Assembly: GCA_036491195.1 (NCBI GenBank) | Contig: DASXCL010000055.1 | Coordinates: forward strand, 23,994 to 87,993 | Direction of reading: 5' to 3' | DNA length: 64,000 bases | Source: Candidatus Angelobacter sp. | Lineage (GTDB): Bacteria; Acidobacteriota; Terriglobia; Terriglobales; Acidobacteriaceae | Part shown: positions 7,666-35,062 of the stretch, piece after piece | How the letters are laid out: every line of letters starts with the position of its first letter | Position numbering within the stretch: the stretch's first letter is position 1 | Translations under genes and position numbers: made by a program | The notes under the pieces: model-generated | What the model was told of the DNA's origin: nothing | What the model saw: only the letters and a program-made list of their open reading frames with translations | The model's database searches: none

Positions 7666-7699
7666 AAAAAACCAGGAGCAGCATTCGTCTGCTCCTGGT
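7666..7699 (-). terminator. Rho-independent terminator of the repeat lipoprotein gene
   Basis: 11-bp perfect stem accaggagcag / ctgctcctggt (7671-7681 / 7689-7699). On the minus strand it is followed by tttttt, 13 nt after the stop at 7712. Confidence 0.75.
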
Positions 7700-7711
7700 T
7701 TCTCGCTCTAG

Positions 7712-9178
7712 TCACTGGTGGCGGATATCGCCGGCCGCAACCAGCCCTTTATCCAGTTCGACAAAGACTGCCCTGGTCCCGTTTACCAGATACACGGCCA
7801 GGTTTTGCGTTCCCAGTGACGTTTTCAGAGCCATCGTGGTGCGGCCGTTCGCCGCGGTTGAAAATGTCCCGGAGAGCGGTTGTCCAAAGGTGATACCGCC
7901 GGAGTTATTGAGGTCAATGATGCCGCTGACCTTGCTGACGCCATCAGCCGTGAATTCCGCAATTGAATCCAGCTCTGAGCTTGAGTGGGGGACCGAGGCG
8001 GTGAAGTTCAATCCATAAGTCCCCGATAGAGTTGCGTTGGAGAACGCCGTGGCCTGCTGCTGCAGTGCGGAGCCGCTCGTCACGAATTGGGCGTCGGTTT
8101 CGAGCACCAGCACGCCGCCGCTGGAAGGGTAGATGACAAAAGTGAACGCGCCGGCGGTTGTGTTCAGGGTCATCGTCGCGCGCCCGCTCGGGGCCATGGA
8201 ATAGGTCCCGGAAAATGTAGCGTTCGGGGTGGTCGCCCCTCCGTCATTAAAATCTTCCACGCCGCCGCTGATGTTGCCAGCGCCGTCTGAAGTCAGGACT
8301 CCGCCGGCGGCAAATGGGACGCCATTGAACACATCAGCCCCGGCGATGGTGAAAGCGAACGGTCCGGACACCGATGCGTTGGTGAACGGGCCAGTCTGGC
8401 GGAACGCTTCGCCGCCCAGGGCCGGCAGCGCCGTTGTTCCCACCAGCTTGATATGGTTCGCATCCACAACGTAGTATGCAAAACTTAGTGCGCCCTTTAC
8501 GGTGTTCAGGGTTGCTGTGCCGCGGCCTGTCGCAGCCACGGGGATGGAACCGCTCATGGGATCGCTGGTAACAATCACGCCGTTGTCGTTGGAGTCGTCA
8601 GTTCCCGTCGTCAGGGTGCCGGCATTGTCAGCCGTAAAGTTACCGGCGATCGCCAGAGGAAGCCCGGCGGAATCGATTCCTGAAACGCTGATGGCAAATG
8701 TCCCCGCCAGGGCAGCGTTGGAAAATGCGGAACTCGTCTGCTGGTCGATTGTTCCGCTGCCGGTGGCGCTGGCATCAAAACGCGTCACCAGCGCGTGTCC
8801 GCCGGAAACGATCACAAAATCCAGAGTGGTGTTTCCAGCAGTCGAATTCAAGGTTATCGAGCCTCGTCCATCCGCGAGGACCTTGTATGTGCCGCTAACG
8901 GCAACGCTAACCGGGGCGTTTAGCTGGCCGCTATTGATGTCCTGGTTACCGGAGGTGATATGGCCATTGCCATCGGCCTGAATGCTGCCGGCCACAGCCA
9001 GGAACCCGGCGCCGTCCGTCCCGGTATAGGAAAACGCAAACGCGCCGCTGAAGTTTGCGTTTGTAAACGTGCCTTGCGGCGTTGGGAAGCTCAGGTTATT
9101 CCCTCCACCGCAACCTGTAACGATTAAGACGACGATGATCGTGGCAATAAAGAGAGGAAAACGCTTGCTTGCCGGCAT
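7712..9178 (-). CDS. lipoprotein built of four tandem ~115-aa repeats, function unknown
   Basis: I trimmed the start to MPASKRF (ATG at 9178). Signal and lipobox IVVLIVTGC. Four-fold internal repeat anchored by FTNANFSGAFAFSYTG / FSNAALAGTFAISVSG / FTNASVSGPFAFTIAG / FSNATLSGTYGLNFTA, each followed by ADG.G.I..G..D.N and GTY....GR.T..L. Confidence 0.75.
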   Translation of the reverse strand: MPASKRFPLFIATIIVVLIVTGCGGGNNLSFPTPQGTFTNANFSGAFAFSYTGTDGAGFLAVAGSIQADGNGHITSGNQDINSGQLNAPVSVAVSGTYKVLADGRGSITLNSTAGNTTLDFVIVSGGHALVTRFDASATGSGTIDQQTSSAFSNAALAGTFAISVSGIDSAGLPLAIAGNFTADNAGTLTTGTDDSNDNGVIVTSDPMSGSIPVAATGRGTATLNTVKGALSFAYYVVDANHIKLVGTTALPALGGEAFRQTGPFTNASVSGPFAFTIAGADVFNGVPFAAGGVLTSDGAGNISGGVEDFNDGGATTPNATFSGTYSMAPSGRATMTLNTTAGAFTFVIYPSSGGVLVLETDAQFVTSGSALQQQATAFSNATLSGTYGLNFTASVPHSSSELDSIAEFTADGVSKVSGIIDLNNSGGITFGQPLSGTFSTAANGRTTMALKTSLGTQNLAVYLVNGTRAVFVELDKGLVAAGDIRHQ

Positions 9179-9498
9179 TTTTCTACCTCGCGCGTATCGA
9201 AGGATTACTACATTGAAAACAGTGGACCAGAAATCGCTCGGGTGGCTGAAAACTCCCAAACCGGGCCCGAAGACAGATGTAACACGGCATTGACCCGCTT
9301 GTTGCGCAAAAAGCAGGTGGTCTGCGGCTTACTTTGGTGGCTGATCATTTAAACTTTTGGATATTGGGGTATGTCGAGAGATGTGATGCTCACAAACGTA
9401 CGCCAGGCCATTGTCCAGCGGTAAAGTTTTGTTAAATGACTGGGCCATTTATAATATAAGGATAGTTGACCTCATAATATCCCTGGAGCTTTCCACCC

Positions 9499-11472
9499 AT
9501 GATTAAGTTTCTGCAGAGCGGCAACAAGGCCGCAAAATATATCCTCGCCGGATTCCTTTTGGTCCTGGCCGCCAGCATGGTGACCTACCTCATCCCCGGT
9601 TTCTCGGGTAATACGGACGCCACCGAGTCAGGCGTGGTAGCAACCGTTGGCGGGCATGAAATTCGCAGCGAGGAGGTCGCCAAGGTGGTGCAGGCGCAGG
9701 CGCACGGGAACCAGATTCCCGACTTCTATATGCCCATCATGCGGCAGCAGGCCATCAAGCAGCTGATTCAGCAGGCGGAAATCCTATATGAAGGTGAGCG
9801 TATGGGGCTGCGCGTTTCAGACCAGGAATTTCGTGACGAGCTGCAATATGGCCCTTCCAGGCAGACTTTTTTCCCGAGCGGAAAATGGATTGGCGCGGAT
9901 CAGTACAAGGCGTTGCTGAGTCAGAACAACTACACCGTGGAGAGCTTTGAGCGCGAGTTCAGGCTGGGGATGCTGCAGCAGAAGCTACTCAGTGTGATCG
10001 GGGCCAACGCGACCGTGCCCGACTCAGACGTGGAACAGGCCTACAAAGACCAGAACACCAAGGTGAAATTCCAGTATGCCGTTTTGAAGCTGGAAGACGT
10101 TGCCAAGACGATCAAGCCGACGGACACGGAACTGAAGGCATTTTATGAAGCCAATAAGGCGCGATACGCGAATTCGACCTCGGAGAAGCGCCAGATCAAG
10201 TACTTTGTCCTGAACGAAAAAAGCGTTGCCGACAAAGTGACGGTAGATCCGGCTGAAATCCAGCGCGCATACAGCGCGGGCCAGAATGCCTATCGCGTGC
10301 CCGAACGTGCCAAAGTTCGCCACATCCTTATTGAAACCCCCAAGCCTGGCCCGGACGGCAAGGTGGACCAGAAAGGCGTGGATGCAGCGCGCGCAAAAGC
10401 CCAGGACATTCTGAAACAGCTTAAGGCCGGCGGTGATTTTGCCCATCTGGCCAACAAATACAGTAACGATCCCGGCAATGAAGATCCTTCGACCCACGCC
10501 AAGAAGGGCGGCGAACTCGGCTGGATCGGGAAAGGTCAGACCGTCGCGGAATTTGAGAAGGTAGCTTTTTCCCAGAGCAAGGGCCAGATCAGTGATCCGG
10601 TCCAGACCCCATTTGGCTTCCACATCATTCAGACTGAAGAGAAGGAAGATGCCCATCTGACTCCGCTGGCCGAAGTGAAAGCGGGCATCGAGTCAGGCAT
10701 TAAGCAGGAAAAGATCAGGACTGAAATGAACAAAGCGTCCGCGGACGCCGAGGCAGTGGCGCAGAAACAGGGCCTGGAGAAGGCCGCGGCCAAGTATGGC
10801 GCGCAGGTCATCCAGAGCAACATGATTGGCCACAACGATGCTCTGCCGGGCATCGGTCCTCAACCTCCGTTGATGGACGCCATTTTTGCCGCGACCGACA
10901 AAGCCGGTCCGCAGGCCACACAGACACCACAGAGCACAGTGGTTTTTGAGGTAACCAAGATCGAGCCGGCGCGCACCCCTACTTTTGAAGAAATAAAGGA
11001 CCGCGTGGCGACGGAATTCAAGAACCAGCGCGCGGGCGACATCCTGCGGCGCAAGACACAGGAGATGGCGGACCGCGCCCATGCCGAGCATGATCTGGCG
11101 AAAGCAGCGAAAGAAGCCGGCGCTACGGTGAAGACCAGTGATCTGGTTGGCCGGTCGCAACAGGTGCCCGACATCGGATCCATGTCTGGACCGGCGGGCG
11201 CCGCTTTCAACCTGAAGCAGGGCGAGATAAGCGGCCCATTGAACATGGGAACCAGCCAGGCAGTCCTGCAAGTGGTGGAACGGCAAGAGCCTTCTCCTGC
11301 CGATCCGGCGTTTGCCAAACAGCGCGATCAACTGCGCGAAACCCTGACTTCACAAAAAAAGCAGGAAGTGCTGAACGTGTTCGTTAACGATCTGAGCACG
11401 CGCCTTGAAAAAGAGGGCAAGGTGAAGATCAACAAGACAGAAATGGATAGCCTTACCAAATCCCGCAGCTAA
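9499..11472 (+). CDS. ppiD: PpiD-like membrane-anchored periplasmic chaperone / parvulin-type peptidyl-prolyl isomerase
   Basis: 657 aa. N-terminal anchor AAKYILAGFLLVLAASMVTYLI, a SurA_N-like chaperone region, and a parvulin rotamase core (VRHILIETP...GGELGWIGKGQTVAEFEKVAF...QTPFGFHIIQ). Confidence 0.8.
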   Translation: MIKFLQSGNKAAKYILAGFLLVLAASMVTYLIPGFSGNTDATESGVVATVGGHEIRSEEVAKVVQAQAHGNQIPDFYMPIMRQQAIKQLIQQAEILYEGERMGLRVSDQEFRDELQYGPSRQTFFPSGKWIGADQYKALLSQNNYTVESFEREFRLGMLQQKLLSVIGANATVPDSDVEQAYKDQNTKVKFQYAVLKLEDVAKTIKPTDTELKAFYEANKARYANSTSEKRQIKYFVLNEKSVADKVTVDPAEIQRAYSAGQNAYRVPERAKVRHILIETPKPGPDGKVDQKGVDAARAKAQDILKQLKAGGDFAHLANKYSNDPGNEDPSTHAKKGGELGWIGKGQTVAEFEKVAFSQSKGQISDPVQTPFGFHIIQTEEKEDAHLTPLAEVKAGIESGIKQEKIRTEMNKASADAEAVAQKQGLEKAAAKYGAQVIQSNMIGHNDALPGIGPQPPLMDAIFAATDKAGPQATQTPQSTVVFEVTKIEPARTPTFEEIKDRVATEFKNQRAGDILRRKTQEMADRAHAEHDLAKAAKEAGATVKTSDLVGRSQQVPDIGSMSGPAGAAFNLKQGEISGPLNMGTSQAVLQVVERQEPSPADPAFAKQRDQLRETLTSQKKQEVLNVFVNDLSTRLEKEGKVKINKTEMDSLTKSRS

Positions 11473-19425: not shown

Positions 19426-20475
19426 ATGAGTTCATTTAGCTGGATTCACTTGTGCGATTTGCATTTTGGACTAACTGGCCAACGTCCTCTGTGGACGAAC
19501 GTCAGGAAAGTTTTATTTGATGATCTCAGAGCGCTGCATGAGCGGTCAGGGCCGTGGCATGCCGTACTGTTCACCGGCGATCTCGCTCAGTCCGGAAAGC
19601 CGGAAGAGTTCGCGGGACTAGATGAACAAGTCCTAGGCCCTCTCTGGGAAATGATGCGTGAACTCGGATCGGAGAATGTTGTTCTCGTGCCTGTTCCGGG
19701 CAATCATGATCTCATCCGACCTGACACCAAGAAGCCGAAAGCCGCTTTACGACAGCTTTTCCGGGAAGGAGGATTCCACGAGATTGAGGAAGAATTCTGG
19801 ACTGATCCAGCCTGCGAATATCGTGAGATCGTAACTACGGCATTTGCGAATTATGACCAATGGTACGAAAGATCGCCCTTTTGCAAAAAGCACGGGTTAC
19901 AACGCGGGATTCTTCCAGGCGATATCGCTCTCAGCTTAGAGATTCCAGATGCGGTTCCTAAGTCGTCGCCGAAAAAGATAGGAATAGTGGGGATGAATAC
20001 GACGTTTCTTCAGTTAGCTCAAGGCGACTATGTAGGACGCCTCGCTTGGGATCTAAGGCAGATTCATTCTGCCTGTGGTGATGACCTAGCCGAATGGGTT
20101 CAAGCGCACGATGCTTGCGTATTACTAACCCATCACGGCCCCGACTGGCTTGATTCGCGGTCGCGCAGCGATATTTACCCTGAAATAAATCCGGCCGGCA
20201 GGTTCGCGGTACATCTTTTTGGGCATATGCATGCCAATGTGATGAGATCGACGTCGGCTGGCGGCGGACCGGTACTGCGCTACTGGCAAGGCGCTTCGAT
20301 ATTCGGATTGGAAAAATTCGGTGAGCCCCCGTCCATCGATAGACGACACGGATATACGATCGGTCGCATAGAGAGTTTGGAGCGAGCGGACCAACTCTCC
20401 GCCAATGGCCCCGACTCGCTATCAAGGACGCTAATGGGTGGAGGTTCGAGCGCGACACAGAACACTGCGTCCTAG
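19426..20475 (+). CDS. calcineurin-like metallophosphoesterase (candidate effector of the downstream NACHT protein; possibly its frameshifted N-terminus)
   Basis: 349 aa. RBS gagga is 8 nt upstream. Full MPE motif set in order: IHLCDLHFG (DxH), FTGDLAQSG (GD), VPGNHD (GNHD), LLTHHGP (H), LFGHMH (GH.H). Lies in the lower-GC islet. Confidence 0.8.
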   Translation: MSSFSWIHLCDLHFGLTGQRPLWTNVRKVLFDDLRALHERSGPWHAVLFTGDLAQSGKPEEFAGLDEQVLGPLWEMMRELGSENVVLVPVPGNHDLIRPDTKKPKAALRQLFREGGFHEIEEEFWTDPACEYREIVTTAFANYDQWYERSPFCKKHGLQRGILPGDIALSLEIPDAVPKSSPKKIGIVGMNTTFLQLAQGDYVGRLAWDLRQIHSACGDDLAEWVQAHDACVLLTHHGPDWLDSRSRSDIYPEINPAGRFAVHLFGHMHANVMRSTSAGGGPVLRYWQGASIFGLEKFGEPPSIDRRHGYTIGRIESLERADQLSANGPDSLSRTLMGGGSSATQNTAS

Positions 20476-20510
20476 ACGAACGGGACGGAGGTACCTATCC
20501 CGAGCCTTTA

Positions 20511-22928
20511 TTGGTTGCGCCAGGTGGGCAAGTCCACAGCGAACCTTCATCGCACACAAGGGCTCGTCGATCGACTTCCAACCGAGAACATCTCGTCGGT
20601 TCAGATTTGCCGCACAAGTTCGGTTGGCCTCACACACAACCCGAGTTCACAAAATTCTGTGATGCAGTTTCAAGCGCCCACAACCACATAAGGTTTGTTG
20701 AGATCCCATTTCTTAAAGATATGTCGGATGTCGAGCTGGATAATCTCTATGTTGAACCGCGTTTTAGCGCACAAGAGATTCATCCCGACACCCCACTATT
20801 CCGCTGGCCTAGCTGCTTTCAGCCGATTGATGCGATTCGCCAGAGCTCTCGGCTCGTGCTGCTGGGGGACCCGGGGTCCGGGAAATCCACCTTAGTTAGT
20901 TGTCTTGCTTGGCAGTTGTGTCGTCAGCATCCGAATCTGAGCAGCCCATGGGCAAAACACTTCGGCGGCCTGCTGCCACTGCCAATGATTCTAAGAGAGT
21001 TGCATCTGAAAGCGGATCTAACGTGGGAAGGCCTATTAGATGCTTTTCTTGAGCATCGCATTGGACGACTTTTGGGGACGCGAAAACATATCGAGGCTTT
21101 ATTAAAAGAAGGAAGAGCAATCATCTTACTCGACGGATTAGATGAGGTCGGCAACCTCAGCATCCGGCGTAAACTGCGCGACGCAGTGCATGCAGGAATG
21201 AGTGCATATCCGCTAAGTAGCTGGCTTCTGACGTCGCGCGTCGTAGGATACGAGCAAGTCCCTTTTCACATCAAAATCGAAACCGTTTCGGCGCGTTCAA
21301 ACGCTAGCGCTGAAGTTGTAGGACATACAAATCGAACCAAGAAGCTTAGGACATCAATGGCCGGGCTAAATTATATGGCACCGTTCAATGATCAGCAGAT
21401 ACGCACATTTGCCGTTAACTGGTATACGCAACATGAAAAAGACGAGGGAATGGTCCAAACAAAAGCGCAGGATTTTATTAATGCAATACGGGAAAATGAA
21501 GGTACCCAGCGCCTTGGCAGGATTCCTTACTTGCTTACCTTGATGTCGCTAATACATCACAAGAATGCCACGCTGCCACATGGCCGAACTGAGCTCTATG
21601 AGAGAATTGCGACAGCATATCTAGAATCCATCGATCTACGACGGCAGCTGAATCAGCTACCATACTCACTTGCACAAAAGAAACGATGGCTAGCCGCTGT
21701 CGCATATCGTATGCAACTGCGTCGTTCGGTTAAGGGCACGCAATCCCCGCGAGGAGATATTCTGGTCGCCCGTTCCCAAGTTCAGCAGTGGCTTCGCGCT
21801 GCGATGTCTGACTCGGGCGCCAAAGACTCTCGGACTGAATCTGACGTCCTTCTTACCTATTTTGCCCAACGCAGCGGTCTACTTTTGCCGCGAGCAGAGG
21901 GTAAATTCGCTTTCATGCATTTGTCACTTCAGGAGTATTTTGCGGCTTGCTTTTTAGAGCCCCGCCTGACCGCATCAAGATTTGGCTCGGACAATAAAAG
22001 GCTTGAGCCCTCTAACGAACAATTGCGATCATGGGCAAATTCGGAGATATGGACTGAAACCTTCGTCCTCTTGTTTGAGTTGCTTTCCGAAAAGTCTGTG
22101 GACGAGACAGAGGCGCTCCTCGATTATCTTTTCAGCGGACGACTGAAACAAGACAAAACGGGAACAGCCCTAAGTGCAGCAGGTCTATTAGCGGAATTAG
22201 CCACCGATCCGTTCGTTTTGTTGAGCGCCGAAACCCGCAGGCTGATAAGGCAGCAATGTTGGCGCTGGGTTTTTTCGCAGCGTGAAGCATCACCTTCTAG
22301 GCGGTATTATAGCCCTAACTCTAATAAGGTTATTCGCACTTTGTTAAGGGAGCATGATGGGGATCTCCGAAAGAGTTGGTTAGCCTCGTCAATCGGCATG
22401 ACCGAGCTACGACGGTTGAAGCATCTGAACCTTAGCGGATGTTTGACGCTCGCCGACCTTGCTCCTCTTAGTAACCTTAGCAAGCTTAAGTCTCTTAACC
22501 TACAGGGATGTACATCTGTCACGAATCTACGACCCCTAAAGGGGTTAGGCAATCTTGAGGCTCTATTGTTGGATGGTTGCTCGAAAATAAATAATTTAGA
22601 ACCGCTGGGAGAAATGAACAAGTTAGAATTCCTCATTATTGGTGCACCTTGCAACTTTGCTCCCCTTGCTAACATGAAGTCTCTGAAATCCATCCACTTA
22701 CACTTTCAGGATGAAAAAGCTGAAGTTGACTTCTCGCCAATAGCGAACCTACCGCAGCTTACCCTTGTGTGTGTCCCCGGGCCGTTAAGGCTTGCGTCGA
22801 ACGGGCGGGAAATACTCCAGAGTGGGACTTCGCCTGGGGTTAGAAGATTGGTAAAACAGTTAGGACCGGAGGGATTATTGGGCGAACGTTATTACCGGGC
22901 GAAGCGTGCCCAACTACTCAAGCGATAA
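20511..22928 (+). CDS. NACHT-family STAND NTPase with C-terminal leucine-rich repeats (bacterial NLR-like)
   Basis: 805 aa from a TTG start; the frame is actually open from 20343. Walker A LLGDPGSGKST (~20866-20892), Walker B AIILLDGLDEV, LLTSR, FNDQQIRTFAVNWY and IPYLLTLMSLI all fit NACHT. The C-terminus (~22400-22760) has at least 5 tandem ~22-aa LRRs (LKHLNLSGCLTLADLAPLSNLS / KLKSLNLQGCTSVTNLRPLKGLG / NLEALLLDGCSKINNLEPLGEMN / KLEFLIIG...). Confidence 0.85.
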   Translation: MVAPGGQVHSEPSSHTRARRSTSNREHLVGSDLPHKFGWPHTQPEFTKFCDAVSSAHNHIRFVEIPFLKDMSDVELDNLYVEPRFSAQEIHPDTPLFRWPSCFQPIDAIRQSSRLVLLGDPGSGKSTLVSCLAWQLCRQHPNLSSPWAKHFGGLLPLPMILRELHLKADLTWEGLLDAFLEHRIGRLLGTRKHIEALLKEGRAIILLDGLDEVGNLSIRRKLRDAVHAGMSAYPLSSWLLTSRVVGYEQVPFHIKIETVSARSNASAEVVGHTNRTKKLRTSMAGLNYMAPFNDQQIRTFAVNWYTQHEKDEGMVQTKAQDFINAIRENEGTQRLGRIPYLLTLMSLIHHKNATLPHGRTELYERIATAYLESIDLRRQLNQLPYSLAQKKRWLAAVAYRMQLRRSVKGTQSPRGDILVARSQVQQWLRAAMSDSGAKDSRTESDVLLTYFAQRSGLLLPRAEGKFAFMHLSLQEYFAACFLEPRLTASRFGSDNKRLEPSNEQLRSWANSEIWTETFVLLFELLSEKSVDETEALLDYLFSGRLKQDKTGTALSAAGLLAELATDPFVLLSAETRRLIRQQCWRWVFSQREASPSRRYYSPNSNKVIRTLLREHDGDLRKSWLASSIGMTELRRLKHLNLSGCLTLADLAPLSNLSKLKSLNLQGCTSVTNLRPLKGLGNLEALLLDGCSKINNLEPLGEMNKLEFLIIGAPCNFAPLANMKSLKSIHLHFQDEKAEVDFSPIANLPQLTLVCVPGPLRLASNGREILQSGTSPGVRRLVKQLGPEGLLGERYYRAKRAQLLKR

Positions 22929-26148: not shown

Positions 26149-28191
26149 ATGTCGTTGTTCTTTATACGCTCCAACTCAATCTGCGCGGATCTGCGTATAT
26201 CTGCGGCGAAAGGGTTCTATGCTTACAATCTCTCTGTGGCCAAGCTGACTTTTGTCGTAGGAAAGGGTGGAGTAGGGAAGACGACCGTTTCCTGCGCGCT
26301 GGCCTTGCATCTTGCGGCGCGGCATCCCCGGCAATCGACGCTGCTCATGTCCACCGATCCGGCGCATTCGCTGGCCGACATGCTGGAGGTCAAAGACCAT
26401 GCGGGATCGCATCGGCTGGCTGGCGCAAAGGGCAAAGTTTCCGTCTGGCAGATTGATAGCGGCCGTGAATTCAACAAATTTCTTGAGGGCAATCGCGAAG
26501 GGATACTCAAGATTGTCGAAAATGGCACGTTCTTCAACCGTGAAGAAATCGCGCCGCTGCTTGATACCACGCTGCCGGGAATGTCCGAGGTTGCGGGTCT
26601 GCTGGCGCTGCGCGACATGCTGGAGAGCGGTGAGCACGATCACATCGTTGTGGATACCGCGCCGTTCGGCCATACGCTCCGCCTGTTCGAGTTGCCGGGA
26701 CACTTTCAGCGCTTCCTGAATTTTCTGGAAGTCGCTTCCAGCCGCGATAATCTGCTGGCGCAGCGCTTCGGCGGACGCAGGTCCAGTCCAGCACATGGCT
26801 TTCTGGAAAAATGGCAGGCCACGGTAAGGCAGGTGAAAGAAGCCTTCAGCGCGGAGCAGGCAGAAGTTCTGCTGGTGACTTCGCCCGAGACTTTTTCGTT
26901 GAACGAAGCAGTGCGCTGCGTTGATGCGCTGAAAGAATCTACTCCGGAGATGCGCCTGGGCGGAATCGTGCTGAATCGTGTCGTGCTCGATGAGAAAAAC
27001 TGCCCGCGCTGCCAGCAGCGCGCGCTCCAGGGGAAGCGCGCGGTTGAGTTTCTCAAGCGCAAATTTCCGCGAGTACCGCGGCTCATTGGCGTCGACCCCG
27101 GAAATCCGCTGCTGGGCGCTGCGCTGTTGCGCCGCTTTGGCGACACGGTCTTTGCCGGCGGTCGAGCCAACCTGGCGGCGCCCGCGCCCAAGCCGTCAAA
27201 ACAGAAATTGAAGTTCATCCGGACTAAATGGCCTGTGGCCGAAACGCGACTCTCATTTACGCTGGGCAAAGGCGGCGTCGGCAAAACCACGATCACGGCT
27301 GCGCTGGCCTTTCATTCCCGGTCTCTAAACAAAGATGTTCACATAACCGTATGTTCCACTGACCCAGCACCGTCGCTCGATGATATTTTCCAGAAAAAGA
27401 TCGGTGACCAGATGGTGCACGTCCTCAACGACTCCGGCCTTGGCGCGATGGAGATGGATGCGGTCTTTGAGTTTCGCCGCTGGGCGGCGCGCATCAAGCA
27501 ACAATTGTCCGCGGGCGCCAGCATGGAATCAGGCGGCTTGCATGTGGACCTCACGTTTGAGAAAGAAGTCTTCGCCGCATTGATGGACGTCGTGCCTCCC
27601 GGCGTGGACGAAGTTTTTGCCATCTTCCGCATCCTGGACCTGCTGGAAGCCAAACCGGGCAGCGTCTTGATTGATATGGCGCCCACGGGCCACGCACTGG
27701 AACTGTTGCGCATGCCAGAGCGAATTCTCTTGTGGTCACGCCTTTTATTGAAAAGCCTGGCTGCGCACCGTACACTAGCCCTCGCTCAGGATGTTGCGGT
27801 AGAACTGGCCAGACTGGGGCAGAGAATACGCAAACTGCTGGAAATGATGCGTGATCCGAAGCAGAGCAGGGCCTGGGCCGTGATGCTGCCGGAACCAGTG
27901 CCTGACCGGCAAACGCAACGGCTGCTGGCTGCGGTGAACGAAGTCGGCATCGCGGTGGATTCGCTTTTTGTGAACCGCGTGCTGCTGGAACCAGCGCCAT
28001 TGAAGGGAAAAACAGGCTGCATGCGCTGCCGGCGGGCGCAACAGTGGCAGATGGCCACCTTGCAGTTGTTGCGGCAGAAATATGGAGAGCATCGCTTGTA
28101 CCTGGCGCGGGAATTTCCCGCTGAGGTTGCGGGCGCGGCGAAATTGAAGAAATTTACCGGCGAGTTATGGCAAATTCAAACAGGAAAATAG
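26149..28191 (+). CDS. tandem-duplicated Get3/ArsA-family P-loop ATPase heading the gas-vesicle cluster
   Basis: Two homologous halves. Each has a GKGGVGKTT P-loop (aa ~39 and ~373), an STDPAHSL / STDPAPSL motif, a DTAPFGHTLRL / DMAPTGHALELL switch-II signature, and a CxxC (CPRC at 27001-27012; CMRC at 28018-28029) about 240-250 aa after its P-loop. The true start may be GTG 26236 (giving MAKLTFVVGKGG...). The 3' end overlaps the first gvpF/L gene by 25 nt. Confidence 0.85.
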   Translation: MSLFFIRSNSICADLRISAAKGFYAYNLSVAKLTFVVGKGGVGKTTVSCALALHLAARHPRQSTLLMSTDPAHSLADMLEVKDHAGSHRLAGAKGKVSVWQIDSGREFNKFLEGNREGILKIVENGTFFNREEIAPLLDTTLPGMSEVAGLLALRDMLESGEHDHIVVDTAPFGHTLRLFELPGHFQRFLNFLEVASSRDNLLAQRFGGRRSSPAHGFLEKWQATVRQVKEAFSAEQAEVLLVTSPETFSLNEAVRCVDALKESTPEMRLGGIVLNRVVLDEKNCPRCQQRALQGKRAVEFLKRKFPRVPRLIGVDPGNPLLGAALLRRFGDTVFAGGRANLAAPAPKPSKQKLKFIRTKWPVAETRLSFTLGKGGVGKTTITAALAFHSRSLNKDVHITVCSTDPAPSLDDIFQKKIGDQMVHVLNDSGLGAMEMDAVFEFRRWAARIKQQLSAGASMESGGLHVDLTFEKEVFAALMDVVPPGVDEVFAIFRILDLLEAKPGSVLIDMAPTGHALELLRMPERILLWSRLLLKSLAAHRTLALAQDVAVELARLGQRIRKLLEMMRDPKQSRAWAVMLPEPVPDRQTQRLLAAVNEVGIAVDSLFVNRVLLEPAPLKGKTGCMRCRRAQQWQMATLQLLRQKYGEHRLYLAREFPAEVAGAAKLKKFTGELWQIQTGK

Positions 28192-28943
28192 CCGCGAACG
28201 CTCTTTATCTTTACGGGATATCCCTGCGTCCTGAAGGGAAAGCGGGCAAGCCGGCCAAAAACCTGGGGAAGATCGGCAGCGCGGGAATTGACGGCGTGCA
28301 TGCGGTCCGGCCGCTGGGCTGCGGAGAATTTATCTGCTGGGTATGCGAGGTTGACCAGGTCAGCTTCGCGGCGGCCGTTGAAAGCAACATGGAAAATCTA
28401 GAGTGGCTGGCGCTGCATGGAGTACGCCACCAGCAGGTAGTAGGCGAAGTAGCCGAGCAAACCAGCATTGTGCCAGCCCGGTTTGGCACCGTCTTTTCCG
28501 GCGAGCCCGCCCTGGTGCAGGATGTCCAGGGCAGAAAGGCGGCGCTCAAAAAGGTTTTCGCCCGCGTGGCCGGCGGCGATGAATGGGGCGTAAAAGTATT
28601 TGCGGAGCGCCAGGCGCCGGTCGCGCTGCCGGAAGCGAGGTCGGGCAAAGAATATTTGCAGCAGAAAGCCGCGCGTCTGAAGAAACGCCCGGAACGTAAT
28701 GATCGGGAACTACAGGAACTGGCAACGGCGTTGGGAAAGATTGCGACGGATTCAGCGCCCAGCGGCAAGGTCAGCGGAGCGCAACCCAATCTGTTGTGGC
28801 AGGCGACGTTTCTGGTGCCCCGCGCCAAACGCAAGCAGTGGGACCAGGTCCTGAAGAATTTTGTGGAGAGGTGGGACGAGCAGCGGCGCATCGAAGTAAA
28901 TGGGCCGTGGCCGCCGTACTCGTTTGTCTCTGATGCCGACTGA
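28167..28943 (+). CDS. gas vesicle protein GvpF/GvpL family (paralogue 1)
   Basis: 258 aa. ALYLYGI start, HQQVVGEVAEQTSIVPARFGTVF, EWGVKVF, and C-terminal NGPWPPYSFV, all typical of GvpF/L. Confidence 0.85.
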   Translation: MANSNRKIAANALYLYGISLRPEGKAGKPAKNLGKIGSAGIDGVHAVRPLGCGEFICWVCEVDQVSFAAAVESNMENLEWLALHGVRHQQVVGEVAEQTSIVPARFGTVFSGEPALVQDVQGRKAALKKVFARVAGGDEWGVKVFAERQAPVALPEARSGKEYLQQKAARLKKRPERNDRELQELATALGKIATDSAPSGKVSGAQPNLLWQATFLVPRAKRKQWDQVLKNFVERWDEQRRIEVNGPWPPYSFVSDAD

Positions 28944-29157
28944 TTTCGAATCCGTGGAAGTCCTGGGAGGCGGAGAAGATGAAATTTCTCTGCTGGAAAT
29001 CCTGGACCATGTTCTGAATTCCGGGGTAGTGATCCACGGTTCGCTGGTGATCTCACTGGCCGGCGTGGATCTGGTGTATCTGGGGCTGAACGTGGTACTT
29101 ACCTCTGTGGAGACGGCGCTGAGCAATCTGCAGATCGAAGAGAAGCGGAAGAAGTGA
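28933..29157 (+). CDS. GvpA-family minor gas vesicle protein (GvpS/GvpM-like)
   Basis: 74 aa from the internal ATG 28933 (11-nt overlap with the upstream gene). ISLLEILDHVLNSGVVIHGSLVISLAGVDLVYLGLNVVLTSVETA matches the Gas_vesicle (GvpA/J/M/S) core pattern. Confidence 0.75.
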   Translation: MPTDFESVEVLGGGEDEISLLEILDHVLNSGVVIHGSLVISLAGVDLVYLGLNVVLTSVETALSNLQIEEKRKK

Positions 29158-29828
29158 GCCGCATTCTGGCATATTGCGCCTTTCGGCATGCTGCGGAACT
29201 CACTATGCCTTTGTTCGGCGTCAACGCCGCATCCGTGCAGGCGGCATCCTCAGGCCATCTGAGCCTGCTGTGGTCTGAGGTAGAGTGGCCGTTCGATCCG
29301 GAGCGAATGCAAAAAAGCGCTGTGGAGTTTCACGGGGTTGTGCACCAGGTCTTCCGCCAGGCTGCGGTCGTCCCTTTCCGGCTGCTTTCGGTATTCGACG
29401 ATCTGCAGGCATTGAAGGCATTTTTCGAGAAGAACCAGGCGCGTTTCCTGGAGGATCTGGAACGGTTAAACGCGGTTGTGCAGATGGAGTGTGTTGTGTA
29501 TCCGCTCCCAACTCGAGTGCAACCCGCCAAGAGCTCTGGCAGAGAATACCTCGAGCAGAAGGCTGTGGCGTTGCGCTCAGCAGAAGGTTTTGCGCAAGCC
29601 GTGCGAGCCGCGTTGACTCATTTGAGCAGGGAAGTGCGGGTGCGTGAAGCAAAGAATGGAACGCGTATCTTCGTATTGATTGACCGAGGCCGCGAGAGCG
29701 ATTTTCGCCAGGCGGTAAGCGCCGTGGCAATACCCGAACATCTATCGCGGCGCGTCAGCGGCCCCTGGCCCGCGGCGGAATTTCTGAGTGAGCAGGTCAA
29801 AATGCCGCAGACTGCCGGTGAAAAATGA
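29154..29828 (+). CDS. gas vesicle protein GvpF/GvpL family (paralogue 2)
   Basis: 224 aa with a GTG start in a GTGA overlap with the upstream stop. AVEFHGVVHQVFRQAAVVPFRLLSVF..., ...ECVVY..., EYLEQKA, and C-terminal SGPWPAAEF. Confidence 0.7.
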   Translation: MSRILAYCAFRHAAELTMPLFGVNAASVQAASSGHLSLLWSEVEWPFDPERMQKSAVEFHGVVHQVFRQAAVVPFRLLSVFDDLQALKAFFEKNQARFLEDLERLNAVVQMECVVYPLPTRVQPAKSSGREYLEQKAVALRSAEGFAQAVRAALTHLSREVRVREAKNGTRIFVLIDRGRESDFRQAVSAVAIPEHLSRRVSGPWPAAEFLSEQVKMPQTAGEK

Positions 29829-30184
29829 CGGACTTGCGGAAAATTACGCCCCAGGAGATCGCCGCGGCTGTCTCAGAGATGAACCGCGAACTCAAGGCCG
29901 TGGGCGAAGGCGCCATCGACCGGATTGACTGCTCGCCGGAGAACATTGAGCAGGGACTTGCGAGGCTGGTGCTCAGCCTGGTTGAGTTGCTGCGCCGTCT
30001 GCTGGAGCGGCAGGCGATCCGAAGGATGGAGGGCGGTTCTCTCGGGAATGCCAAAGTTGAGGAGATGGGCCAGGCTCTGATGCGTCTTGAAGCCAAGGTG
30101 AATGAACTGGCTGCGGCTTTTGGCCTGAAGCCGGAAGACCTCAACCTGGAACTTGGTCCATTGGGGAACCTGCTGGACAAGTAA
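29825..30184 (+). CDS. gvpK: gas vesicle protein GvpK
   Basis: 119 aa with an ATGA overlap with the upstream gene. GLARLVLSLVELLRRLLERQAIRRMEGGSL ... EDLNLELGPLGNLL matches the conserved GvpK core. Confidence 0.85.
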   Translation: MTDLRKITPQEIAAAVSEMNRELKAVGEGAIDRIDCSPENIEQGLARLVLSLVELLRRLLERQAIRRMEGGSLGNAKVEEMGQALMRLEAKVNELAAAFGLKPEDLNLELGPLGNLLDK

Positions 30185-30329
30185 TTCTCAACCGGTTTCC
30201 AGCCCAGGGGCAAGAACGATTTTTTCAGGCGAAGCGGCAACCTTTTTAAAACAGGTACGCATCATAGACGTACACGCTGGCTCCTCCCCCTTCCGGATTT
30301 TCATAAGCCAGCGAAAAAGTGGGCAAAAG

Positions 30330-30358
30330 TTGACAGTTTCAGATGGGCTGGTTAGGAT
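30330..30358 (+). promoter_or_regulatory. candidate sigma70-type internal promoter for gvpJ-gvpA
   Basis: TTGACA (30330-30335), 17-nt spacer, TAGGAT (30353-30358). It is located in the only sizeable gap (242 nt) of the cluster, about 70 nt upstream of the gvpJ ATG. Confidence 0.45.
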
Positions 30359-30426
30359 GCGATGACACGGGTCGTTTGCGGATATCCTAATCCCATGCGA
30401 TCTCCTCTGAATTTTCCCGAGATATT

Positions 30427-30747
30427 ATGCAAAGAGTTCCTTCGGTTTCCGGAACAGCCAACCTGCTCGATATTCTTGATCGAGTCCTCGATAAGGGACT
30501 CGTGATCGCGGGCGACATACGCGTTTCGCTGGCGAACGTGGAGTTGCTGACGATCCGCATACGCTTGCTTATCTGTTCTGTCGATAAGGCTGAAGCCATA
30601 GGTCTCAATTGGTGGAAGTACGACCCCAATCTCACCGCGCCAGCGTCTGAAAAAGTGGTACGGCGAGCCCAGTTGCCGGGGGCGCCGCCAGGGGCCAGTG
30701 TGCCGAGCCGCAGCAAGGCCGCTGTTCGTGCAAAACGCGTGAAGTGA
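30427..30747 (+). CDS. gvpJ: gas vesicle protein GvpJ
   Basis: 106 aa. [53 protein letters not shown] is a GvpJ-type Gas_vesicle domain with a C-terminal extension. Confidence 0.85.
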
Positions 30748-30778: not shown

Positions 30779-31081
30779 ATGGCCGTTGAAAGAGTTTCCG
30801 GCGGATCAAGTTTAATCGATGTCCTGGATCGAGTACTCGACAAAGGCATCGTTATTGATGCCTGGGTCCGCATCTCGCTGGTCGGTATTGACTTGATCAC
30901 GGTTGAAGCGCGCGTTGTCGTCGCGTCGATTGATACCTATCTCAAGTATGCCGACGCTGTCGGTCTTACTGGCTTGGTCTCCCGCCCGACCCTGGGTGAA
31001 GGCGGCGCCGAAGGTGAAGAACAAGGAGAACTGGGTGAGGTCAGGCCACGTACACCACGTGCACCCCGCCGCCGGCGGTAA
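30779..31081 (+). CDS. gvpA: major gas vesicle structural protein GvpA, with charged C-terminal extension
   Basis: 100 aa. [55 protein letters not shown] is a near-consensus GvpA core, followed by about 35 extra residues ([28 protein letters not shown]). Confidence 0.9.
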
Positions 31082-31102
31082 GGCCTGGTCTTGGGGGCAC
31101 GC

Positions 31103-33220
31103 ATGGCTACGGCCCAAATCCGCTTTAACTCCGCGCGCATGAACGGGCGGCGGACAACGCAGCCCCGACGTCCTGCGGTGCTTCGCCTGTTTCAGGCTGA
31201 GCGCTCGGAGGAGATATTCCCGCTTTTGCTGGAAGAGATTGTCGCTCTCGGCCATCCCCGCGCCCTGGTAGTCGACGTGAACCTGGAGAGCGGCGAGGTG
31301 TCGCCGGCCGCGGCGCTGAAGTGGCCTCGAGCGCAGATGGATAAGTTCACCAGCGCGCTCTGGATGCAGGAGCACCCTCTTGTCAGTATCCTTCACGCCG
31401 CGCGGCCTGAAGTTCTCGGCAAGAGCACTCTGCATAACCGGCCAATCTACATTCATCCCATCCTTTACTCCAACCGCAATCTTTGCTGGGAAGCTGACCG
31501 TATCCGCACCTCCAGTTGCCTGGCGGTCCAGAATTTCCACCGGGAAAAGCGCGTCCGGCTGGAAGACCAGGTTTGCTCCACCTGTGAGATGCGGGCTTAC
31601 GCGGCCGCGGTCATCGTGGAATTGCCCAAGGGCTATACCGAACAGCGGGTCGCCGAACTGGGCGAGTTGATGGATCTCGCCAACCGGTATCTCTCGCGCT
31701 TATTCAAGGTTGAGCACTATTACAACCGCATGCGGGATATGGAAATCACCATCGCGCAAATGGGTACCGTGATGCAGAGCATGGCCGATCCGGTCATTCT
31801 CACTGACACCCAGCATCGCGTGATCATGCAGAATAAAGCGGCAGAGCGCTTCTTCCGCGTCCCCGACGAAATGACCGAAGGTCTGGTGCGCGCGGTTGAG
31901 TTCAATAATCTCCTTTTCTCCGCGGCACTCTCTTCCATGCTGGTTTCCGGCAGCGATTCCCACCGCGACCTCACGCTGGTGGACGCCATTGAAGGCGAAG
32001 AAATGCTTTTTGAAGCCGTCTCCGCCCCCACCTACGGGCCTGACGGCATCCAGCTGGGAACGGTCACCGTGATGCGTGACGTTACCGATCTCCGTCGCGC
32101 CGACCAGGAATTGCGCCTCAATTACGAAAGGCTGAGCGAAGCTGAAGAAGTAGTCCGCCAGGACCGCGACCGCCTCAACGTGATCATCGAAAACGTCGGC
32201 GATCCTATTGTGGTTTGTGACGGCAAGGCCAAGATCGTTCTGGTGGACCCGCTGGCCCAGGAATTATTCGGGGCCGAAGCCGACGTGGTGCGCGATACCA
32301 TCCAGTTCCAGAACCAAACCAAGCTCACTGCATTTATTGATGCTTTTACGGCCTCCTTTGCCGATCGCGAAACGGCGCCCTTGCGGTTGTTCAATCCCGC
32401 GCTGCGGCAGGAGATTGAATATGACGCGCGTTCCGGCAAAATCTTTGGTGAGCGCGGCCAGGTTTCCTATACCGTGACCGTGCTGCGCGACCTTACTGCC
32501 TTGCGCAGGGTGGAGCAGCTCAAGGTCGAGCGGCGCATGCTGGAAATCGAAAAATTCGCCGCCACTGGCAGATTGGCCGCCACCATTGCCCATGAGGTCA
32601 ATAACCCCATGGAGGCCATCAAGAACGCCATTTATCTGCTGGCCAGCGCGATCCCGGAAAATGCGTCGCCGGTCTACAACATTTTGAAGTCGGAAACCGA
32701 GCGGGTGGCGCGTATTGTCCGCCAGATGCTGGGACTTTACCGCAACACCGAACAGGTCAAGCCGGTCAACGTTAATACGATCATTGAGGACACGCTGCTG
32801 CTGCTCAACCGGCAGCTCCAGCGGGCGAACGTCGAAGTGCAGACCCAGTTGGAAGTGTTGCCCGATGCCGTAATTGCCGCCGACCAGATCCGCCAGGTGC
32901 TTTCCAACCTGGTGATTAATGCCCGCGACGCCATGCCCAACGGCGGCAAGCTCCGCATCCGCAGCCGCCACATTCCCGGATATGACGATCTGCATGGCTG
33001 GGTGCGGATTCTGATCGCCGATACCGGCTCCGGAATTCCGCCGGAAATGATCCGTACCATTTTTGAGCCCTTCGTCACCACCAAGGGTGAAAGAGGCACC
33101 GGCCTGGGCCTGTGGATCGTCAAGGGAATTATCCAGAACCATGCCGGCAAGCTCTCAGTCAAGAGCCGGGTGGGCCGGGGCACGACTTTCAAGATTGATT
33201 TGCCCGTCGTAAAATTGTGA
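31103..33220 (+). CDS. cytoplasmic sensor histidine kinase (N-terminal Cys-containing sensory domain, 2 PAS-like domains, HisKA, HATPase_c)
   Basis: ATG at 31103, 22 nt after the gvpA stop. No TM helices. PAS-like blocks (ADPVILTDTQHRVIMQNKAAERFF; GDPIVVCDGKAKIVLVDPLAQELF). H-box ATIAHEVNNPMEAI. N/G boxes NLVINARDAM, DTGSGIP, GTGLGLWIV. Confidence 0.85.
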   Translation: MATAQIRFNSARMNGRRTTQPRRPAVLRLFQAERSEEIFPLLLEEIVALGHPRALVVDVNLESGEVSPAAALKWPRAQMDKFTSALWMQEHPLVSILHAARPEVLGKSTLHNRPIYIHPILYSNRNLCWEADRIRTSSCLAVQNFHREKRVRLEDQVCSTCEMRAYAAAVIVELPKGYTEQRVAELGELMDLANRYLSRLFKVEHYYNRMRDMEITIAQMGTVMQSMADPVILTDTQHRVIMQNKAAERFFRVPDEMTEGLVRAVEFNNLLFSAALSSMLVSGSDSHRDLTLVDAIEGEEMLFEAVSAPTYGPDGIQLGTVTVMRDVTDLRRADQELRLNYERLSEAEEVVRQDRDRLNVIIENVGDPIVVCDGKAKIVLVDPLAQELFGAEADVVRDTIQFQNQTKLTAFIDAFTASFADRETAPLRLFNPALRQEIEYDARSGKIFGERGQVSYTVTVLRDLTALRRVEQLKVERRMLEIEKFAATGRLAATIAHEVNNPMEAIKNAIYLLASAIPENASPVYNILKSETERVARIVRQMLGLYRNTEQVKPVNVNTIIEDTLLLLNRQLQRANVEVQTQLEVLPDAVIAADQIRQVLSNLVINARDAMPNGGKLRIRSRHIPGYDDLHGWVRILIADTGSGIPPEMIRTIFEPFVTTKGERGTGLGLWIVKGIIQNHAGKLSVKSRVGRGTTFKIDLPVVKL

Positions 33221-33657
33221 GTGCCGACCGCAAATACCGCGTGCTGGTAGTGGACGACGAAGCTGCCGTCCTGCTTACTTACCGCCTCATCCTTGAACGG
33301 CAGGGCTATGAGGTGGTGGCATGCGGCACTTCGGTGCAGGCCATTGCGGCTGTGCAGAAAGAGCGGTTTGATGTTGTTCTATGCGACTATTCTCTGGAAG
33401 AGCAGCATACGGGGTTCGAAGTAATCTCAGCGGCTAGAAAGCTGGATCACGAGGTGCCGGCGGCCCTGCTTACGGGATACGCTACCAAGGAAACGGCCGA
33501 TGAAGCGGCCAGCCGGGGCATCGGCGTGATGTTCAAGCCGATCGAGATTGAAGAATTTTTGGCCACCACCTCCACTATGGTGAGGAGAGACAATGAGCCC
33601 AAGCAAGAAGGCGGGGAAAAAGACAACCACGCTCCGCAAAACGAACACCAAGGCTGA
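33217..33657 (+). CDS. stand-alone response regulator receiver protein
   Basis: 146 aa with a GTG start in a GTGA overlap with the kinase stop. VLVVDDE, VLCDYSL (acceptor Asp context) and MFKP are present. There is no output domain. Confidence 0.85.
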   Translation: MSADRKYRVLVVDDEAAVLLTYRLILERQGYEVVACGTSVQAIAAVQKERFDVVLCDYSLEEQHTGFEVISAARKLDHEVPAALLTGYATKETADEAASRGIGVMFKPIEIEEFLATTSTMVRRDNEPKQEGGEKDNHAPQNEHQG

Positions 33658-34495
33658 ACCGGCGACAGCGTTGCTGGACCTTGTGCCTCCGCCATCCGTC
33701 CAGAAGGCCGAGTCGCCCAGGAGCGGGCAGCAGCAGGAAGGCCGCTACGTCTACGGTGTGATCGAATCGCGCGCCCCGGTCGGCTTTGGACGCAGCAGTA
33801 TCGGCGGCGTCAATGAAGCCGTATACACCGTGCACTATGGCGATATCGCGGCCGTGGTCAGCCGCACTCCTGTTTTTATCTTTGATCCCACGCGCGACAA
33901 CGCCCTGGCCCATGAGCACGTCATCGAATCGGTGATGAAAAATTACACCATCATTCCCATGAGCTTTGGCACGGTTTTCCGCACGGACGACGATATCCGC
34001 GAAGTGCTCAAAAGCATTTACTCGTCGCTCAAAGACGTGCTCAAGCAGATGACCGGCAAGCTGGAGTTTGGCCTGAAAGTCACCTGGGACCGCGACCGCA
34101 TTATCGAAGAGTTACAGCGGGAGCATGATGAGATCCACCGCTTCCACCAGGAACTCACCCGCAAGCACTTGCAGTCGACGTATTTCGCCCGCATGCAGCT
34201 GGGCCGCATGATCGATAAAGCCCTGGCAGAACTTGCAGCCAATTACGTCCGTGAAATTTACGACGGCCTGCGCGCCGTCTGCGTGGCCTCCCGTGACAAC
34301 AAGCCCATCGGCGACAAGATGATCATGAACGCCGCCTTTTTGATTCAGAAAGCGCGCGAAGCCGAGTTTGACGCCGCCGTGAACCACGTCGCCCAGAAGT
34401 TCGGCGACCGGCTGAATTTCAAATATACCGGCCCATGGCCGCCGTACAATTTCGTGAACATCCGCCTGAAACTGGAGCGCGGCGGGCAGGGGTAA
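33593..34495 (+). CDS. gas vesicle protein GvpF/GvpL family (paralogue 3)
   Basis: 300 aa. RYVYGVIES, VHYGDIAAVVS, HEHVIESVMKNYTIIPMSFGTVF, LEFGLKVTWD, and C-terminal YTGPWPPYNFV. ATG 33593 overlaps the receiver gene by 65 nt; in-frame TTG 33671 or GTG 33683 would avoid the overlap. Confidence 0.85.
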   Translation: MSPSKKAGKKTTTLRKTNTKAEPATALLDLVPPPSVQKAESPRSGQQQEGRYVYGVIESRAPVGFGRSSIGGVNEAVYTVHYGDIAAVVSRTPVFIFDPTRDNALAHEHVIESVMKNYTIIPMSFGTVFRTDDDIREVLKSIYSSLKDVLKQMTGKLEFGLKVTWDRDRIIEELQREHDEIHRFHQELTRKHLQSTYFARMQLGRMIDKALAELAANYVREIYDGLRAVCVASRDNKPIGDKMIMNAAFLIQKAREAEFDAAVNHVAQKFGDRLNFKYTGPWPPYNFVNIRLKLERGGQG

Positions 34496-34720: not shown

Positions 34721-35062
34721 ATGCTTCTAATCGATGACCTGCTTTTCGCTCCCTTCTCCGGCTGGAATTTCATCATGCGCACCCTGCTCAAAGTAGCTGA
34801 AGAGCAGTGGACGGACGACGCCCCTCTCAAAGAAAAACTTCTCCATCTTCAGGTTGAACTTGAAGACGGTTCTATCACAGAAGAGCAATATCTTGAAGCC
34901 GAGGCTGCCGTCCTGCGTGAGATCCGCGAGGTGCAGCGCCGCAAGATCGAACTTGCCGGCGGCGATCCCGACCAGTTTGAAGGCGGAATCTCCAGTTCCT
35001 CCGTCCAGGAAGGGTCCAGCGCTTCCATCACCTGGGACCCCAACGAAAGCAACGAAGAATAA
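34721..35062 (+). CDS. gvpG: gas vesicle protein GvpG
   Basis: 113 aa. MLLIDDLLFAPFSG...LLKVAEEQ...LLHLQVELEDGSITEEQYLEAEAAVLREIREV matches the conserved GvpG pattern. Confidence 0.8.
   Translation: MLLIDDLLFAPFSGWNFIMRTLLKVAEEQWTDDAPLKEKLLHLQVELEDGSITEEQYLEAEAAVLREIREVQRRKIELAGGDPDQFEGGISSSSVQEGSSASITWDPNESNEE

Follow-up and report, generated by a model that had tools for sequence, protein, structure and literature searches.

The gene considered here encodes a fused two-domain ATPase of the Get3/ArsA family and heads a gas-vesicle (gvp) cluster in a 64,000-nucleotide stretch of DNA from Candidatus Angelobacter sp. (contig DASXCL010000055.1), which we refer to as the window. Its closest described relatives come from several systems of SIMIBI ATPases. 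ArsA, represented by structures from E. coli (1f48) and L. ferriphilum (9nbw), is a two-domain pseudo-dimer with a DTAPTGHT signal motif; it carries a metalloid Cys triad, is encoded in an ars operon and lacks a CxxC motif. Get3/TRC40 proteins, such as those of M. jannaschii (MjGet3, 3ug6), M. thermautotrophicus (MtTRC40, 3zq6) and yeast, are homodimers of single-domain subunits, and their clients are membrane tail anchors. A third relative, ArsA1 of Chlamydomonas reinhardtii (5zme), consists of a double Get3/ArsA domain on a single chain. This protein is eukaryotic and chloroplast-associated and is said by Lin et al. in 2019, together with the PDB title of 5zme, not to be an arsenite pump. 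For Get3, a role as an ATP-dependent holdase and targeting factor is described in PMC3613179 and PMC10248533, and its CxxC serves as the Zn ligand where the two subunits of the dimer meet (PMC10248533).

The link between such ATPases and gas vesicles has been made before. In 2010 Castillo & Saier described ArsA homologues with two domains whose genes lie in gvp operons; they came from Bacteroidetes/Chlorobi, Cyanobacteria, a delta-proteobacterium and Acidobacteria, the acidobacterial case being Aba1 of Acidobacteria bacterium Ellin345, which is found with two L/F genes and with J, K and M (PMC2963123). In their gvp-linked clusters 4 and 6 both the Cys triad and arsR are absent, and they proposed that the ATPase energises a step of gas-vesicle biogenesis distinct from that of GvpN (PMC2963123). 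A study from 2017 then listed ArsA as co-evolving in cyanobacteria with eight Gvp proteins (PMC5464585). The first-pass annotation of the window, made from the sequence alone, suggested that such an ATPase had not been described as a gas-vesicle factor; these two publications contradict it. The association with gvp genes is therefore already known, and what is new is a plausible reading, by analogy with Get3, of the ATPase as a Zn clamp and chaperone. Neither PMC2963123 nor PMC5464585 mentions a CxxC, zinc or Get3-like chaperoning, and searches of the full-text literature for 'gas vesicle' together with Get3, 'anion-transporting ATPase' or 'tail-anchored' returned no relevant chaperone proposal. 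We further add split and single-domain gvp-linked forms, the joint loss of the CxxC motifs, and gvp clusters that naturally lack the ATPase.

Compared with these systems, the window ATPase is most like the proteins of clusters 4 and 6. As in those, two ArsA-type domains are found in a chain of about 630-680 amino acids, encoded among the gvpF/L, J, K and M-type genes of a gvp operon, without the Cys triad and without arsR; Aba1 even stems from the same phylum. With Get3/TRC40 it shares the fold, the catalytic motifs and the alignment position of the CxxC, but it is one fused chain, and its predicted clients, judged by analogy, would be gas-vesicle shell proteins instead of membrane tail anchors. 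None of the genes that Pfam identified in and around the window cluster encodes a partner of Get3/TRC40, neither Get1/2 (WRB/CAML) nor Get4/5. It resembles ArsA in its pseudo-dimeric architecture and its signal motif, whereas it is without the metalloid Cys triad and the ars operon of ArsA and carries Get3-type CxxC motifs, which are missing from ArsA. ArsA1 is likewise a double domain on a single chain, yet it has no Cys at the CxxC positions and no gvp context. On balance we give about an even chance to the proposal that the window ATPase is a dedicated, accessory factor of gas-vesicle biogenesis, a covalently fused Get3-like dimer that would act as a Zn-hinged holdase and hand-off factor.

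The ATPase is encoded on the forward strand in an open reading frame (ORF) of 680 codons, which covers window positions 26149-28191 when it is extended maximally to the ATG at 26149. Two observations bear on the start: the identical protein is publicly annotated (Candidatus Angelobacter sp., Acidobacteriota; 100% identity) with a length of 651 amino acids, and of about 100 close homologues, 72 have their start 8 residues ahead of the P-loop. The true start of the coding sequence is therefore most likely the GTG at 26236, so that the frame described at first reading stands while its start at 26149 gives way to the later codon. Codons 1-29 of the maximally extended frame (26149-26235) are probably untranslated, and a TACAAT hexamer (26224-26229) lies immediately 5' of the GTG; a promoter scan 5' of the ATPase gene gave no signal over background.

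The internal duplication of this frame, with all the motifs originally named for each half, was recovered at the expected coordinates (Table 1). Identity between the two halves is 27% (E 1e-22). In an alignment of 46 family members at about 30% identity, both of them conserve the P-loop residues and most residues of switch I and II, either invariantly or to at least 90%. The CxxC motifs, placed about 240-250 residues past the P-loops in the first-pass annotation, were measured at 247 residues (CPRC) and 251 residues (CMRC). Also as first described, the TAG stop of the ATPase gene, which ends at 28191, lies inside the following gvpF/L gene with its ATG at 28167; the resulting overlap of 25 nt is found again in a related Angelobacter locus (L001).

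Profile and structure comparisons agree on the family. Pfam ArsA_ATPase (PF02374) matches the protein twice (E 4.6e-90; 302 bits against a cutoff of 24.3), and the model TIGR00345 (GET3_arsA_TRC40) is passed with 306 bits against a cutoff of 135. An AlphaFold2 (AF2) model built from the 46-sequence alignment reached a predicted local distance difference test value (pLDDT) of 89.8 and a predicted template modelling score (pTM) of 0.92, and confidently predicts a closed pseudo-dimer. In Foldseek searches with this model the probability was 1.00 for ArsA, ArsA1 and Get3 alike. The best whole-chain match is the closed ArsA 9nbw, with template modelling (TM) scores of 0.71/0.80; Get3 chains align to one half of the model over about 305-330 columns, and their target-normalised TM scores are mostly 0.71-0.84, or 0.64-0.69 for Get3 chains in the open state. 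By sequence, the best match in the PDB is Chlamydomonas ArsA1 (E 2.6e-41), followed by E. coli ArsA and Get3/TRC40, and in a plasmid collection only canonical ArsA was matched, at about 25% identity. The window ATPase is thus a pseudo-dimer of the Get3/ArsA (SIMIBI) family with both nucleotide sites intact, in agreement with its initial classification. In a neighbour-joining (NJ) tree of the separate halves with 100 bootstraps, the N-terminal and C-terminal halves of canonical-type ArsA are each monophyletic at 100%, and the gvp-linked halves group together and apart from ArsA at a support of about 20%. The tree hints that duplication and fusion in the gvp-linked ATPase may have taken place independently of those in ArsA; of the placement sought by the first-pass annotation, the separation from canonical-type ArsA is recovered and the bootstrap support stays low.

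A genome scan with the P-loop pattern provided a quasi-random sample of 80 ArsA/Get3-family loci. The five that score best, from Angelobacter (L001), Anaerolineales (L002), Thermoanaerobaculia (L003), Rokubacteria (L004) and Vicinamibacterales (L012), all carry gvp genes on the same strand, as against none of the remaining 75; the chance of such a split, computed by hand as 1/C(80,5), is about 4e-8. These five loci span Acidobacteriota (three classes), Chloroflexota and Rokubacteria and have in common the order gvpF/L - ATPase - gvpF/L - small gvpA-like - gvpF/L - gvpK. Homologues picked by the length of the available sequence alone were located inside gvp clusters in four of four cases (L082-L085), where the ATPase usually starts 3-8 nt past gvpG and is followed by a gvpF/L or gvpA-like gene and by gvpK, and two of two homologues without CxxC (L086, L087) are embedded in gvp clusters as well. 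Altogether, 11 of 11 informative loci of the clade, from at least three phyla, belong to gvp clusters, compared with 0 of 75 other ArsA/Get3-family loci; the homologue P0143, on a contig of 3.2 kb that is too short for its context to be judged, is outside this count. Starting from the gas-vesicle side, 24 metagenome loci were anchored on gvpK and required to have at least 5 kb of upstream sequence; an ArsA-family gene, be it fused, split or single-domain, lies upstream on the same strand in 18 and is absent in 6. The statistical linkage to gvp genes proposed as a check in the first-pass annotation is thus borne out: the clade is found essentially only in gvp clusters, usually between gvpG and gvpF/L. 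It is also broad, with thousands of homologues in Acidobacteriota, Chloroflexota, Rokubacteria, Desulfobacterota and Poribacteria.

Some of these clusters are rich in genes for chaperones, which speaks for a chaperone role of the ATPase. Locus L082 has a fusion of GvpL/F with a DnaJ J-domain directly 5' of the ATPase gene, and an Hsp20 gene and a Cdc48-like double AAA+ gene in the same cluster (8881-9981, 3281-3811 and 6653-8878, respectively). Cdc48-like AAA+ genes occur in the gvp clusters of eight loci (L002, L082, L084, L085, L141, L149, L152 and L167), and in four of these (L141, L149, L152 and L167) the adjoining ATPase is of the single-domain form. In the Pyrinomonadaceae locus L083 (12937-15943), a TIR-domain gene and two unknown genes, all on the opposite strand, interrupt the gvp cluster between gvpF/L and the small gvpA-like gene.

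The two CxxC motifs connect the ATPase to Get3 in particular. CMRC aligns column for column with CDFC of M. jannaschii Get3 and CEFC of M. thermautotrophicus TRC40, and CPRC aligns with CMRC, so that the proposed positional homology to the Zn-site CxxC of Get3 holds; in the same alignment, neither ArsA nor ArsA1 has a Cys there. In the AF2 model the two motifs are placed at the N-termini of equivalent helices. An exhaustive profile-free homologue search yielded 469 representative clusters at E < 1e-30. There are 113 full-length two-domain representatives at about 30% identity; both motifs occur in 79 of them, neither in 28 and a single one in 6. This is a both-or-none pattern (odds ratio 276, p 5e-20), in which the two behave as one unit. 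Retained with unchanged placement in 79 representatives, the double CxxC is more than a chance occurrence. Parsimony on an NJ tree requires 12 changes for the N-terminal motif and 10 for the C-terminal one but only 14 jointly, from which it follows that the pair was lost together several times. Repeated co-loss of this kind is the behaviour expected from one shared four-Cys site.

Natural variants of the ATPase tell a similar story. In the gvp cluster L160 (1641-3553) the ATPase is split into two overlapping adjacent ORFs with one CxxC each, and four clusters encode single-domain Get3-like ATPases with one CxxC in open frames of 314-327 codons (L141 3012-3956, L149 2109-3092, L152 3007-3957 and L167 2740-3693). 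Such one-CxxC forms fit the prediction of a site at the dimer interface. By analogy they mirror heterodimeric and homodimeric Get3-like arrangements, the single-domain proteins being presumably homodimeric. From these patterns we infer that the four cysteines of the window ATPase form one intramolecular tetrathiolate Zn site; the arguments for it are homology and co-loss.

A role as chaperone or insertase for hydrophobic Gvp proteins, as first suggested for this gene, is plausible by analogy with Get3. The hydrophobic proteins GvpA, GvpJ and GvpS are believed to depend on chaperones (PMC11445434). The mechanism could run as follows. The four cysteines would hold a single intramolecular Zn ion on which, as in Get3, the pseudo-dimer would hinge. 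Upon ATP binding, the two helical subdomains would close and enclose a hydrophobic stretch of a client among the Gvp proteins, possibly the alpha1-beta1-beta2 region of GvpA, GvpJ or GvpS, or the N-terminal hydrophobic helix of GvpG, and keep it soluble. Hydrolysis would then release the client to the nucleation or growth machinery of GvpF/L, GvpG and GvpK. In this way the ATPase may raise the efficiency or fidelity of assembly without being indispensable. We put forward only tentatively, and with distinctly less than even confidence, the more general formulation in which a Get3-type Zn-hinged clamp, whether fused, split or homodimeric, was recruited to non-membrane clients, so that it would capture the hydrophobic face of GvpA-family proteins or of GvpG and pass it on to the growing gas-protein interface.

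Several observations weigh against a Get3-like chaperone. The hydrophobic fraction of the helical subdomains (0.43-0.48) differs only slightly from that of canonical ArsA (0.40-0.42), and their Met content of 3-4% compares with 1-3% in ArsA and 6% in archaeal Get3-like proteins. The hydrophobic fraction does exceed the 0.39 of the archaeal Get3-like proteins; since composition does not discriminate the ATPase from ArsA, we dropped it as an indicator of a hydrophobic groove. At the position of the TRC40 insert of Get3, the C-terminal half is about 16 residues short (gaps relative to MjGet3) and the equivalent segment of the N-terminal half is polar. The current model of assembly assigns the chaperoning of GvpA to GvpF and GvpG, and elongation to GvpN (PMC11445434). 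About 25% of the representatives of the clade lack both CxxC motifs and are still kept in gvp clusters, which means that the Zn site is not essential to gvp function. Finally, two clusters (L129, 7133-10847; L134, 7153-10898) lack the ATPase in an otherwise identical order, gvpF/L-gvpG-[gap]-gvpF/L-gvpS-...-gvpK-gvpJ-gvpA, with a gap of about 130-145 nt at the position of the ATPase gene. The gene hence looks accessory, and dispensable in at least some lineages.

Other explanations have to be measured against the same evidence. The ATPase might be a genuine ArsA, the catalytic subunit of an arsenite efflux pump that came to lie beside gvp genes by chance. Its two-domain architecture, the public annotations that read 'arsenite-transporting ATPase' and the best whole-chain structural match all speak for this idea, but the residues do not: aligned to E. 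coli ArsA (1f48), the window ATPase has Leu and Ser where ArsA has C113 and C172 and, with the register set by eye, Gly in place of C422, just as Castillo & Saier reported the triad to be missing from clusters 4 and 6. The ArsA equivalog model TIGR04291 was failed with 150 bits against a cutoff of 650, and the tree of halves separates the ATPase from the two-domain proteins taken as canonical ArsA. Genes of the arsR, arsD, arsB, acr3 and arsC Pfam families are absent from window positions 17.6-40 kb, which agrees with the first-pass annotation, and so does the lack of the Cys triad that it had named as the mark of a true ArsA. The neighbours of ten comparison loci, which are two-domain and group and score like canonical ArsA though their flanking ORFs are not confirmed as ars genes, have no counterparts in the window except generic ABC, histidine-kinase and response-regulator matches. 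We rejected canonical ArsA on the missing triad, the failed model and the absent ars genes, and regard this identity as effectively refuted, with next to no probability left to it. Another possibility, raised in the first-pass annotation, is that the ATPase replaces an absent GvpN, the AAA+ protein, in the ATP-driven elongation of bicones into mature vesicles. Like the window ATPase, GvpN is a gvp-encoded ATPase and is thought to act on GvpA (PMC11445434). No ORF with a GvpN-type Walker A is present anywhere in the window, and GvpN is missing within 10 kb on either side in the acidobacterial and Rokubacteria loci L001, L004, L012 and L083. Eight loci (L002, L082, L084, L085, L087, L141, L152 and L167), however, carry GvpN (AAA_5) alongside an ArsA-type gene. 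Anticorrelation of the two genes was looked for in 11 loci with full flanks and in 10 others; the full-flank loci comprise three with both genes, six with the ArsA-type gene only, none with GvpN only and two with neither. There is no anticorrelation, clusters without either gene exist, and the idea of a GvpN substitute is accordingly unsupported. The folds differ too, AAA_5 (PF07728) being unrelated to SIMIBI and unmatched in the window ATPase itself, and by their frequent co-occurrence the two ATPases are not interchangeable in distribution. Moreover, a gvpN gene may sit elsewhere in the same genome. We consider the supply of a missing GvpN function improbable.

Two further proposals would leave the ATPase without a part in the building of vesicles or give it a regulatory one. 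SIMIBI ATPases are generally known to position other bacterial organelles, and a ParA/MinD-like protein that spaces or distributes vesicles is conceivable on that ground. ParA, MinD and CbiA-type models do match the window ATPase, weakly, partially and only over the P-loop region, but the full-length match is to the Get3/ArsA models. A fused dimer would also be barred from the ATP-dependent switch between monomer and dimer that ParA uses, and the close packing with gvpG and gvpF/L, where the genes often overlap, suggests that these are its partners in assembly, which makes a positioning role very improbable in our judgement. Alternatively, the CxxC pair could, by analogy, be a thiol or Zn switch that makes the ATPase a redox- or metal-sensing regulator and gates vesicle production under oxidative conditions. 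Its conservation would suit such a switch, as would the histidine-kinase and response-regulator genes embedded in these clusters, and the CxxC of Get3 has been implicated in an oxidation-regulated chaperone mode, according to the discussion in PMC10248533. Against a sensor stand the members without CxxC in the same gvp context and the strict conservation of both ATPase sites, the latter suggesting mechanical work and not sensing alone. We think a regulator of this kind has a slim chance of being correct.

The remainder of the window cluster follows the ATPase gene on the same strand (Table 1). Its GvpA has a canonical core with a tail of about 30 residues, first acidic and then Arg-rich, that is unusual in a major shell protein. 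Between gvpK and gvpJ lies a gap of 242 nt (30185-30426) that contains the best sigma-70-like site of the region, TTGACA-N17-TAGGAT (30330-30358). The ORF of 70 amino acids at 30153-30365 lacks a counterpart in L001, where the genes on either side are nevertheless 86-89% identical. Judging from the sequence, this gap is probably non-coding and harbours an internal promoter for gvpJ and gvpA. The PAS histidine kinase and response regulator inside the cluster (31091-33657) have equivalents in the clusters L082 (16098-18462), L083 (18567-22052), L084 (3614-5496) and L085 (4068-5976). Because such pairs recur in ArsA2-type clusters of other phyla, gas-vesicle production may be governed by a conserved sensory module. 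Upstream of the ATPase gene, the window encodes an EEP-family nuclease/phosphatase, a Cu-oxidase_4 (PF02578) protein, a NACHT-LRR NTPase and a metallophosphoesterase. The last two are arranged at 19426-22928 as the metallophosphoesterase followed by an 805-residue NACHT-type STAND NTPase with C-terminal LRRs, and could be a defence or signalling pair.

Table 1. Features of the ATPase gene and of the gvp cluster, in window coordinates.
Feature	Position	Strand	Evidence
Fused two-domain Get3/ArsA-family ATPase gene ('ArsA2'), probable coding sequence of 651 amino acids	26236..28191	+	Pfam, homologue starts, AF2 model
Deviant Walker A / P-loop GKGGVGKTT, N-terminal half	26260..26286	+	Invariant in 46-sequence family alignment
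Switch I STDPAHSL, N-terminal half, includes conserved Asp	26350..26373	+	46-sequence alignment
Switch II DTAPFGHTL, N-terminal half	26653..26679	+	46-sequence alignment
CPRC, Get3-type CxxC, N-terminal half	27001..27012	+	N-terminus of predicted helix 257-276
Deviant Walker A / P-loop GKGGVGKTT, C-terminal half	27265..27291	+	Invariant in 46-sequence family alignment
Switch I STDPAPSL, C-terminal half	27355..27378	+	46-sequence alignment
Switch II DMAPTGHAL, C-terminal half	27673..27699	+	46-sequence alignment
CMRC, Get3-type CxxC, C-terminal half	28018..28029	+	N-terminus of predicted helix 596-615
gvpF/L copy 1, start overlaps ATPase gene by 25 nt	28167..28943	+	PF06386, E 6e-39
Small GvpA-family gene (GvpS/M-like)	28900..29157	+	PF00741, E 7.9e-15
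gvpF/L copy 2	29154..29828	+	PF06386, E 7.8e-25
gvpK	29825..30184	+	PF05121, E 1.4e-33
gvpJ-like GvpA-family gene	30427..30747	+	PF00741, E 1.9e-17
gvpA, canonical core and Arg-rich C-terminal tail	30779..31081	+	PF00741, E 4.4e-17
PAS histidine kinase inside cluster	31091..33220	+	Pfam
Receiver-only response regulator	33217..33657	+	Pfam
gvpL/F copy 3; type found just 5' of gvpG and the ATPase gene in other phyla	33593..34495	+	PF06386, E 7.1e-76
gvpG	34721..35062	+	PF05120, E 3.2e-13

The clade bears on the question of how the extremely hydrophobic proteins of the GvpA family stay in solution and enter the growing vesicle (PMC11445434), and a systematic study of gas-vesicle protein interactions includes no ATPase of this type (PMC11445434). 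Our literature searches turned up no experimental work on the gvp-linked ATPase. If it is indeed a Get3-like chaperone, it would offer a testable handle on the chaperoning step and could improve the heterologous expression of gas vesicles for acoustic reporter genes. For the Get3/ArsA field, the clade provides bacterial proteins with a clear genomic client context and with natural fused, split and single-domain variants. A chaperone of this kind would extend the 'guided entry' known from Get3 to a protein-shelled organelle, which would make it the first among bacterial homologues of Get3 to have a defined set of clients.

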